DNA from: Saccostrea echinata
Lineage: Eukaryota
NCBI RefSeq assembly: GCF_033153115.1
Contig: NW_026889750.1
Coordinates: 22,940,001 to 23,004,000 of the forward strand
Length of the DNA stretch: 64,000 nt
Reading direction: 5' to 3'
The translations under genes and the position numbers were made by a program. Below are positions 21,089 to 29,837 of the stretch, piece after piece. Positions within the stretch are counted from its first letter, which is position 1. The number at the start of each line of letters is the position of its first letter. The notes under the pieces were generated by a model that saw only the letters and a list, made by a program, of their open reading frames with translations, had not been told where the DNA came from and did no database searches.

Positions 21089-24000
21089 ATGGCTCCTGTT
21101 AAGAGGAACAGGTGGAGCCAGGAAGCAATGGCAGCGGCAATAACCGATGTAAAGGCTGGTAGGCTGTCTATAAACAAAGCCAGTCATCATTATAACGTGC
21201 CTAAATCGACGTTGCATGACCGCATCACAGGGAGGGTGAAGGAAGATGCAATAAATGGAAAAAGTCCACTTCTATCGTCTGCTGACGAAAAACAGTTGTT
21301 ACAAATAGCTACAGAAAGAGCTGAAATGGGTGTTGGTTTCAGTAAATCCAACTTTAAACGCGCTGCTGCAGCCTTGGCGAAACAGCGGGGGGCATCCTTT
21401 AAAAGAGGAGTTCCGTCTGAAAAATGGTGGACCCTCTTTAAAAAGAGAAACGGGGGCGAAGTGTCATTGCGCCAGCCGGAGTCAACAGCCAGCATAAGGC
21501 ACAAGACAATGACTAAAGAACGGACTGAAAAATACTTCGCCGTATTGCGCGACGTACTGACAACAAACGGACTAGACGGTAATCCTAACAAAATATGGAA
21601 CATGGATGAAAGCTTTATATCTCTATCATCAGATAGTTCCTTGGTTGTGGCCAGGTAAAAAAAATAATGAATAGGCATAACCCCCGCCCACCCCTTTTTT
21701 TTTCCTTTCTCAACACTGGTTCGTATTTAATTTTAATTTTTCCGAGTCAATTTCGCATGAAATAAAATGATTTTAACCCTGCTATGAATTCAGATACATA
21801 TACTTAATATAAGGGGTCAGAGCCATAAAGCTCACCCTGTTACCCGGCTATTCTTCAAAAGAAGAAAGTCTTCACCATATTCCTAAAACAAGAGGCCTGT
21901 GGGCCACATTGCTCACCTGAGCACATTGATTAGGAAAAACCAGAAATCAGTTCAGTATTGAAAGGTTTAAGGGGGAAGGAAGCAAACTTGAATGTACACT
22001 ACCTCAGGATACTTCCATATCAGTATCACTAATCATAACTTTGCTGTTCTTGAGGAGAAGAATTGTTGAGATTTTTACCTATGTATTCATATGTAAAACT
22101 CTGATGGCCCATTGTGGCCCCAACCTACCCACCCTAGTTTTAAACAAATTTAAATCTACACTACACAAGGATGTGTTCCTTGAACCTCGAGTATGTAATG
22201 ACTCTTTCACAAAAGTTTCATCTGTCCTTGCCCAGTGGTTCTTGAGAAGAAGAATTTTAAAAGATGCCAATTTTATCTCCCCTTGTAGGAGTGTGTCGCA
22301 CATCCTGTGAACAAACTTAAATCCCCTCCACAAAAGGATGCTCCTTCACAAGTAGGGTTGAAATTGGTCGGCTGGTTCTGAAGAAGTGTAACAAGAGGCC
22401 AAATCCCTCACCTTAGCACAACTGCTAGGAAAAAGTTTGAATATAAAAGTGTGACCCCACCCTACCCCCAGTAGAGAAGGGGTCATATTTTGAATAATAT
22501 TATATTGATTCTACACTACCTGAGGATGCTTCCATATAAATAGGCTTTGCTGTTCTTGAGAAGAAGATTTTTTAAAGATTTCCCTACATACATGTATTCC
22601 TATGTAAAACTTTAATCACAAATTGTGGCCCCACCCTAACCAGGGGGTCATGATTTACACAAATTTGAATCTACACTACCTCAGAAAGATTTCATATAAG
22701 TTTCGTATTTTCTAGCACAGTGGTTCTTGAGAAGAAGATTTTTAAATTTTCACATAATTATCTCCTCTTGGAAGAAGGTGTGGCACTTCCTGTGAACAAA
22801 TTACCCAAGTATACTTTGTGACAAGTTTGGTTGAATTGGCCAAATCCTTCTTCATCAGAAGATGAAAATGTGAAAAGTTTACAATGACAATGATGACGAC
22901 AACTACGACAGACAACAGACAAATTCAGATCAGAGTTTGTTATTTCTTCTCTCAAAAATCTTATTAGAACTGGTACAAAGTACGTTCAATCCAAAGCTGG
23001 AAGTAGAGAGCATGTGACTATTCTTGCTTGTGGGAATGCTGCTGGTGAATTTATACCACCCCATTTCATTATGAAAGGAAAAACCCAGCTTGCCCTTAGA
23101 TCTTGGGATTCTGAAAATGCCCCTATTGGTTCTTTTGTCAGCGTGTCCGACTCAGGGTGGATAAAACAGGTATGGTGTTAACAAAAATCTTAAATTAATA
23201 CGCAATTTCTGAACATTTGATGTCATTGAATAACAAATATTTCTACAGACAATGACTCTCATTTCCAAGTTTTCTTTTTCTTCCCATAGGGTTTGTCACT
23301 CTTATGGTTTCAAAAGGTTTTTCTGCAGAATATAGGTCCTGAACGTCCGCAGATTTTAATATTTGATGGACATGATAGCCACCATCATGTAGAGCTTATT
23401 GAATGTGCACGAGAAAACAACATTATACTAATGGAAATACCAGCTCACTGTTCTCATTGGCTACAACCATTAGATAGGCACGATTTACTTTCCTCTTTGT
23501 GAAATAATTAGCTAACTCATATTTATCTTTCTCTTTCCTATGATCATATCGAATTTCAGGTCTGTGTTTGGGCCCTTGAAAAAGAAATGGCGTGAAGTCA
23601 ATACGACTTTCATCATGGAAACTGCCTGTCCCATCACACACGGCAATTTTTTCCGCCTCTTCTCGAGGGCATGGAACACTCTGAAGCCTTCTTATCTCAT
23701 AAATGGGTTTCGGGTTACTGGGATTTCCCCTCTTGATCCTGCTGCAATTCCTGAGGAAGCTTTCCTTCCATCAAATGTATATGCTGACCCTGCAGGTATA
23801 TTAGAAAAATGTCTTTATTAAACAGATACTGTGCCATTAAACGGCTTATATGTGTAAATGTTCCTAAACTGTTAGTGTTATTCCGTTTTTGTCTGTGTGG
23901 AATATATAAGAAATGAAGTCCACATTATCATGAATGATGCAGGATAACCTCCGAGGTCGAAAAATGTCTGAAATATAAAAGCCGAGGAGGTTATCCTGCA

Positions 24001-29837: not shown

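Follow-up and report, generated by a model that had tools for sequence, protein, structure and literature searches.

Structure of the element and its insertion site

Within the window, by which we mean the whole stretch of 64,000 nucleotides analyzed, a DNA transposon of 11,558 bp occupies positions 19438..30995 on the plus strand, as delimited by its terminal inverted repeats (TIRs) and by the empty-site alignment. It was placed by its features among the Fot-like pogo elements and carries two genes on the same strand, a transposase gene with seven predicted exons and, before it, a standalone ORF with the HIRAN fold. The preliminary description had given the extent as 21089..29837, which omits the TIRs and the second ORF, and it overlooked the HIRAN ORF in its gene content.

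The left TIR (26 bp, 19438..19463, plus strand) is identical to the left end of all nine extracted copies of a 1.06-kb MITE family, and subterminal copies of the TIR motif are found at 19838-19900. The right TIR (30970..30995, minus strand) matches the left one at 23 of 26 positions, with subterminal copies at 30769-30811; two of its three mismatches are common to the 1.06-kb MITE family, and one is not. A TA target duplication borders the element (19436..19437 and 30996-30997, no strand assigned), which splits a host MITE of ~1 kb into two flanking halves (18857..19437 and 30998-31438, also unstranded).

The empty site was recovered in all 11 fetched copies of the host MITE, which align across the junction, and a single TA was present in the three junctions inspected. 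The nearest three sampled copies of this young MITE are 1.2-1.4% away, the closest differing by 12 substitutions in 1013 positions (1.2%), which caps the insertion age of the element. The element moved recently, and its target TA belongs to a young MITE. This host MITE lies in turn within a further repeat (18001-18856 and 31439-31679), 3.7% from a copy at C22, the locus of a dead sister, and the nesting around the landing site comprises four levels in all.

Transposase gene model

The seven exons of the preliminary description were reproduced in silico, splicing in phase to 600 codons and a stop, and the catalytic triad was borne out as D173 (MDE), D282 (FDGH), and D318 (QPLD), with 35 residues from the second to the third Asp. 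Against Pfam, the spliced transposase matched HTH_psq (E 2.8e-11) and DDE_1 (E 2.1e-9), and HTH_Tnp_Tc5 weakly, below the cut-off (E 0.021). All exons lie on the plus strand. Exon 1 (21089..21654) encodes HTH_psq, the weak HTH_Tnp_Tc5, and the first catalytic Asp; exon 2 (22968..23169) has a homologous exon in the C22 sister, with the same downstream intron position; and exon 3 (23290..23477) encodes the second and third catalytic Asp. Exon 4 (23560..23795) was defined by the in silico splice and the C22 comparison. Exon 5 (27443..27556), a Ser/Pro-rich linker that can be skipped in frame, is the least supported exon. Exon 6 (28139..28428) is homologous to C22 (pN 0.30, pS 0.79) and was aligned to the intronless relative C14, and exon 7 (29631..29837) encodes a basic tail and the stop.

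Five introns are GT-AG, and intron 3 is of the GC-AG type; its donor is weak, and C22 has GT there. The GC donors are swapped between the sisters, as intron 2 has GT here and GC in C22, and intron 3 the reverse (GC at 23478 of the window). Exon 5 is symmetric, so that skipping it keeps the frame and yields a product of 562 aa. No homologue of exon 5 was detectable in C22 (local score of 27 versus a shuffle mean of 29); a candidate seen by eye was rejected, as it sits in an inverted repeat and scores below the shuffles, and an alternative phase-1 donor in C22 comes without sequence similarity. The tblastn alignment to the intronless C44 extends to aa 429, that is, into exon 5. Exon 6 has three in-frame acceptors (28106, 28139, and 28172), of which 28139 agrees with C22 by eye. 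Intron 5 and parts of the flanks were compared with the extracted loci, among which intron 5 gave no match; it contains a microsatellite-like stretch with a short G/C hairpin (27676-27750) that resembles the end of a HINE-type element and is possibly a further insert remnant.

Homologues lend the gene model independent support. The C22 sister shares 65-77% amino-acid identity in the core, with splice sites where the window element has introns 2, 3, 4, and 6. In the four exons compared, pS ranged from 0.79 to 0.99, meaning saturated synonymous sites, and pN from 0.14 to 0.30. Both sides of its exons 6-7 carry a tandem array of ~156-bp units in inverted orientation. The C30 fragment matches exon 1 and continues into intron 1. 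In P0217, a gene model of the ark clam Tegillarca granosa that is 59% identical to the window transposase, the end of the window exon 1 jumps to the start of exon 4, which suggests that introns 1 and 3 are at the same places. This model strings together three near-identical transposase units, with intron positions apparently common to the window element. Relatives at 35-49% identity (C44, C14, C12, and C16) have an intronless core. The intron positions common to C22, C30, and P0217 indicate that the introns are old. The seven-exon splicing is a prediction from the in silico model and the intron positions of homologues.

The HIRAN open reading frame

The HIRAN ORF (20641..21021, plus strand) encodes 126 aa and lies within the TIRs; 67 bp separate it from the transposase start downstream. 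Its match to Pfam PF08797 (E 7e-5, 23 bits) falls just under the curated cut-off of 24.7, which was passed by 7 of the 14 relatives scanned, and the Atlas matches at 0.93-0.94 are HIRAN clusters. A PDB sequence search with the ORF returned no significant match. The structure model reached a pLDDT of 90.4, and in both structure searches the best match was the HLTF HIRAN domain (Foldseek E 1.6e-5; Z 13.4 and rmsd 2.8 over 114 residues).

Twelve of the top 14 HIRAN matches in the genome lie upstream of a co-oriented transposase, within ~2 kb; the exceptions are C8 and C46, and C33/C61 represent one duplicated locus. The other 16 short matches mostly have stops, and the one examined has no adjoining transposase. 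C12 and C16 are 5,207-bp twins (2194-7400 and 2664-7867 of their extracted loci) at different loci. They are 99.7% identical, with 28-bp TIRs and an intact, intronless HIRAN and transposase pair, and this compact element is probably active. C44 and C9 also hold HIRAN within short TIRs.

A profile search retrieved 289 cluster representatives at E <=0.001, mostly of ~90-160 aa among the 150 listed. Longer gene models from other data sets join the HIRAN family to HTH_psq (P0074) or DDE_1 (P0129). These and P0142 are probably joins made in gene prediction, which indicate linkage and not a fusion protein; a word search for longer fused forms found none among 60 candidates.

A quick tree of the transposases placed HIRAN at 7 of 9 loci in the clade of the window element, at 3 of 9 in the next, and at none of 14 in the third, fractions that are biased upward as the HIRAN-positive loci were picked for their HIRAN matches. 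The tree has no named Fot, Passer, or Tigger references, leaves out C8, C30b, C33a, and C61, and shows C30a on a long branch. The third, HIRAN-less clade includes long open frames. HIRAN is missing at many pogo loci, so not every pogo element depends on it. Compared with C22, the ORF gave pN 0.21 and pS 0.76, which indicates purifying selection; the signal between young dead copies is weaker (omega 0.44, p 0.03; omega 0.57, p 0.2).

The family-invariant residues are G-M-H-H, D39, and Y57. G-M-H-H-W presumably matches the HLTF motif around Y72. An Arg occupies the position aligned with an HLTF stacking tyrosine, a position that is aromatic in 8 of 16 homologues. An N-x-x-D loop and the next strand align with the HLTF HIRAN (E 1.1, not significant alone). 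In DDE transposition, free 3' ends are exposed where the transposon ends are cleaved and at the donor gap. The HLTF HIRAN is described as binding the 3' ends of single-stranded DNA (PMC6753471, PMC8297803), in a cavity with Y72 and Y93 at its borders (PMC4666394). Given the free 3' ends at both places, a role there is the most economical guess, and by analogy with HLTF we give even odds that the HIRAN protein would be an accessory factor binding free 3' DNA ends at cleaved transposon ends or the donor gap.

The ORF may instead be a captured passenger, or act on the host (e.g., in repair or chromatin), with no part in transposition, a tentative reading that we find clearly less than even. It agrees with the absence of HIRAN from many pogo families of the same genome and with one stacking aromatic not being kept. 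Against it, HIRAN keeps a fixed position between the TIRs in two deep clades of transposases and is under purifying selection, which together argue for some benefit to the element.

In five of five elements, the transposase start follows a T-rich tract that ends in AG, and in most a comparable AG stands before the HIRAN start. These tracts before both start codons are a hint of alternative splicing from one promoter, by which the HIRAN protein may be made through the choice of 3' splice site. The papers listed by our literature search included none that describes HIRAN in a eukaryotic DNA transposon; an earlier mention in Repbase or in supplements is possible.

Copy number and related sequences in the genome

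No second full copy was found. In the exon 1 search, only the window matched at 100% and the next match reached at most 77% (93 matches of 138 candidates scored), and the exon 3 search gave the same result, with the next at most 77% (90 of 113 candidates scored). For the left end, one copy of 553 bp on another contig (C51) begins exactly at the TA and TIR and differs at 2 of 545 positions (99% identical). No right end was present in the 20 kb fetched around it, and it is possibly an abortive transposition or repair product. Right-end copies above 84% were absent among the 40 scored of 557 candidates.

The 1.06-kb MITEs that share the ends of the element number ~600 candidates, and the nine extracted measure 1,054-1,059 bp. 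Six compared pairwise were 1.2-7.9% apart, except for one pair with shared flanks. Beyond the TIRs, they are only 77-84% identical to the element. Two further copies contain internal HIRAN fragments, so the family likely derives from a sister element by deletion.

Variation among samples

The unique parts of the element are nearly unchanged in contigs from four runs (three samples, two studies), where pieces of up to 1.7 kb show 0-3 differences. A contig of run X1 connects 23788 directly with 27470, which removes intron 4 and 34 exonic bases. A contig of run X2, which comes from that sample, loses its match at 23788 and leaves 153 letters unmatched, and a contig of run X3 has its end at 23789. 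A microhomology of 3 bases lies at the joint, which is not a splice and which shifts the frame after the catalytic core. This version is likely a derived deletion, because C22 keeps the intron-4 donor, and its presence in X1 means that the structure is not fixed among samples. Contigs of two runs start to match at ~28157 with other letters before, a hint that intron 5 differs structurally as well.

Three of the runs compared were guessed to be RNA. Run X6 yielded a contig that corresponds exactly to exon 3 plus letters shared with the neighboring exons, another that stops matching at the end of exon 2 (30 letters over), and a third that ends at the exon-6 donor. The 15 joints shown of 118 included no splice joint, and other contigs run unspliced through introns 2 and 3. 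The X6 contig ends fit splicing as a weak hint from this one run.

The preliminary description had offered host domestication as its alternative, with the transposase kept by host selection and the TIRs as relics. The single copy, the intact frame, and the six introns are in its favor, and intron-bearing, TIR-less, single-copy bivalve transposases are proposed as domesticated in the TLEWI report (10.1101/656579). This alternative was rejected due to the paired TIRs and the intact TA duplication in a MITE ~1% old, together with the empty site in that young MITE, which excludes an old domesticated locus. The frameshifting deletion version in another sample also counts against it, and we hold it to be highly improbable.

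Inserts in the introns

Seven inserts were mapped in introns 1, 4, and 6, for a total of ~5.0 kb or 44% of the element; no strand was assigned to them. The earlier statement that at least six secondary elements sit only in these introns therefore held, whereas their common designation as MITEs did not, as the intron-1 insert is not a MITE. This insert, E1 (21885..22934), is a high-copy tandem-repeat element with ~170-bp units and no terminal inverted repeats, HINE/pearl-like by layout. It resembles the Cg_HINE/pearl elements as described in PMC7492417 in its short arrays of ~170-bp units and microsatellite-like end, and differs in being truncated; the label denotes a resemblance in layout to the published description.

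Intron 4 contains four inserts. E4a (23907..24557) is 6.6% from its nearest sampled copy (43/649 substitutions; Fisher p versus the host MITE 2e-9). E4b (24562..26201), an old foldback-type element, has arms 10-12% from their nearest copies (28/235 and 28/284; p 8e-13 and 5e-11) and encloses E4c (25044..25831), a palindromic element with a TTAA duplication, which we take to be Kolobok-like, at 2.5% (20/796; p 0.026). E4d (26580..27140) is a TIR element with a perfect 9-bp duplication at 3.2% (18/556; p 0.005). In intron 6, E6a (28484..29600), at 5.3% (37/701; p 6e-7), encloses E6b (29185..29540), at 1.7%.

Two arguments of the preliminary description were not retained. The decayed arms of the inserts had been read as a sign of age, and we rejected arm divergence as an age measure, since the inequality is family-wide in both families tested. 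Arm complementarity of E4c is 81% here and 81-85% in eight other copies, the arm match of E4d is 86% here and 82-90% in seven other copies, and both intronic copies are ~97% identical to family copies. Exon avoidance is likewise uninformative: it is what chance and survivorship would give, and the five primary inserts would all miss coding DNA by chance with p=0.13. The placement of all five in introns rather than other non-coding parts (p=0.017) was not relied on, the flanks having been only partly searched.

Age of the inserts relative to the landing site

An insert older than the present site must have come in with the element, so the nearest-copy distance of each insert was set against the 1.2% of the host MITE. 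Such a distance is an upper bound on insertion age, with 40 of 325-2505 candidates scored per family and 7-24 copies compared, a sample in which a closer source may be missed. Five of the six dated inserts (E4a, E4b, E4c, E4d, and E6a) exceeded the host divergence at p<0.05, E4c and E4d only modestly; E6b was not older than the site (p 0.31), and E1 was outside the dated set. In the nests, the inner element was younger in three of three. It is likely, from these sequence comparisons, that most intronic inserts rode along in the latest jump from an earlier site.

The element could instead have landed with short introns and received all inserts later, from subfamilies with unsampled close copies. 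That only 40 candidates per family were scored would allow this, and E6b is as young as the site. None of the matches listed from the 40 candidates scored per family continues out of an insert into the unique part of the intron, so the inserts are absent from any other copy of the host element among them, which also suits late insertion. On the other side, the same search ranked three 97% host-MITE copies at the top of 1975 candidates, and E4b comes from an old family and encloses E4c. The rate of substitutions absent from every sampled copy is roughly four times as high in the inserts (71/3701) as in the host (5/1010; p 4e-4), with 20 such changes in E6a, including 16 transitions and seven CpG changes. 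Seven insertions into 1.9 kb of intron sequence within ~1% divergence would also imply a very high rate. We consider late insertion improbable.

Introgression or horizontal transfer of the element with its cargo from a related species is slightly less probable still. Transfer would account for the element being single-copy and for its inserts being uniformly more diverged. It would also accord with the lack of a close full-length sister in the genome (best exon identity 77%), with resident MITEs only 77-84% identical beyond the TIRs, and with the 59% identical relative annotated in Tegillarca granosa. However, E6b (1.7%) and E4c (2.5%) are close to resident copies, three samples of two studies hold the unique parts with 0-3 differences, and the dead sisters C22 and C30 point to a subfamily long resident.

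The preliminary description had regarded the element as a long-lived vehicle for other transposons and had looked to other copies with the same intronic elements as the check. The genome yielded no second full copy, and C22 shares the intron positions and has none of the inserts; intron 6 of C22 measures ~125 nt, and 2.7 kb of unrelated sequence occupies intron 3 there. Dating against the MITE site thus supports the cargo claim for at least the latest jump, and the long-lived vehicle lineage was not upheld. The evidence for co-transport is this dating, which suggests cargo for one jump and does not extend to the lineage history beyond it. Our preferred reading, with a probability of about 0.7, is a two-gene, 11.6-kb Fot-like pogo element that inserted recently at a TA in a young MITE and likely brought most of its intronic inserts along.

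Proposed mechanism and significance

In the mechanism that we propose for cargo transport, the spliced 600-aa DD35D transposase would bind the TIRs and subterminal repeats and cut and paste everything between them. With excision of all DNA between the TIRs and insertion at a TA, the intronic passengers would travel along. The old introns would act as a sink in which other elements land without breaking the gene, and splicing would strip them from the mRNA. The same enzyme, or that of a close sister, would mobilize the ~600 MITEs of 1.06 kb having the same ends. A literature search on nested co-mobilization gave nothing specific.

A broader scheme is possible but doubtful. In it, one lineage of animal Fot-like pogo transposons would be a two-component system, with a dedicated HIRAN protein that is alternatively spliced from the shared promoter and would cap or hand over 3' ends in cut-and-paste or donor-gap repair. 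One branch, with six introns, would have become able to ferry unrelated MITEs as an 11-kb unit, possibly from one species to another.

The usual view of pogo-type elements is one of compact systems with a transposase only, 1.2-5.2 kb in size (PMC7386202). With a conserved HIRAN partner, such a system would include an accessory gene drawn from the DNA-repair toolkit, whose role can be tested directly in the intact, intronless 5.2-kb twins C12 and C16. The nested dating also supplies a concrete example, of a rare kind, of a transposase gene that its introns allowed to take up 5 kb of other elements and still move. The intronic passengers would have been relocated with no enzymes of their own, and the effect on their families is small, amounting to one copy among hundreds to thousands.

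Comparison with known systems

The window element fits the Fot-like pogo group in the features compared, the tree having no named references. It is like the Fot/Fot-like elements described in PMC7386202 in its DD35D triad, HTH_psq with a weak HTH_Tnp_Tc5, and TA duplication. The target duplication reported for that group is TA, TAA, or TAAA, and the window element has TA. The TIRs of most Fot/Fot-like elements measure 40-60 bp, whereas those of the window element, at 26 bp, are within the <=40-bp type of most pogo families; its 11.6 kb also exceeds the 1.2-5.2 kb reported (PMC7386202). The six introns and the separate HIRAN ORF are further differences, and the words "HIRAN" and "intron" have no occurrence in the main text of Gao et al. 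2020 (PMC7386202) or Dupeyron et al. 2020 (PMC7325037), the latter of which lists six oyster Fot1-like sequences. Membership in Passer, marked by BrkDBD and/or HTH_Tnp_Tc5 without HTH_psq, was ruled out, as HTH_psq is present and no BrkDBD match was obtained.

TLEWI, as presented in 10.1101/656579, is also a low-copy bivalve transposase split by several spliceosomal introns, and transposition after intron gain is noted there. TLEWI is a DD36E Tc1-like transposase described as lacking TIRs, whereas the window element is a DD35D pogo with paired TIRs, a target duplication, and a recent insertion, and it was not assigned to TLEWI. The HIRAN ORF is predicted to have the same fold as the HLTF/Rad5 HIRAN (PDB 6kcs, 4xzg; TM 0.71, Z 13.4), but it is standalone, 13-14% identical, located inside a transposon, and has Arg where HLTF has Tyr93. 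Intron-rich bivalve transposases were already known from TLEWI; what the window adds is an upstream, co-oriented HIRAN in the Fot-like lineage and a dated intronic cargo.
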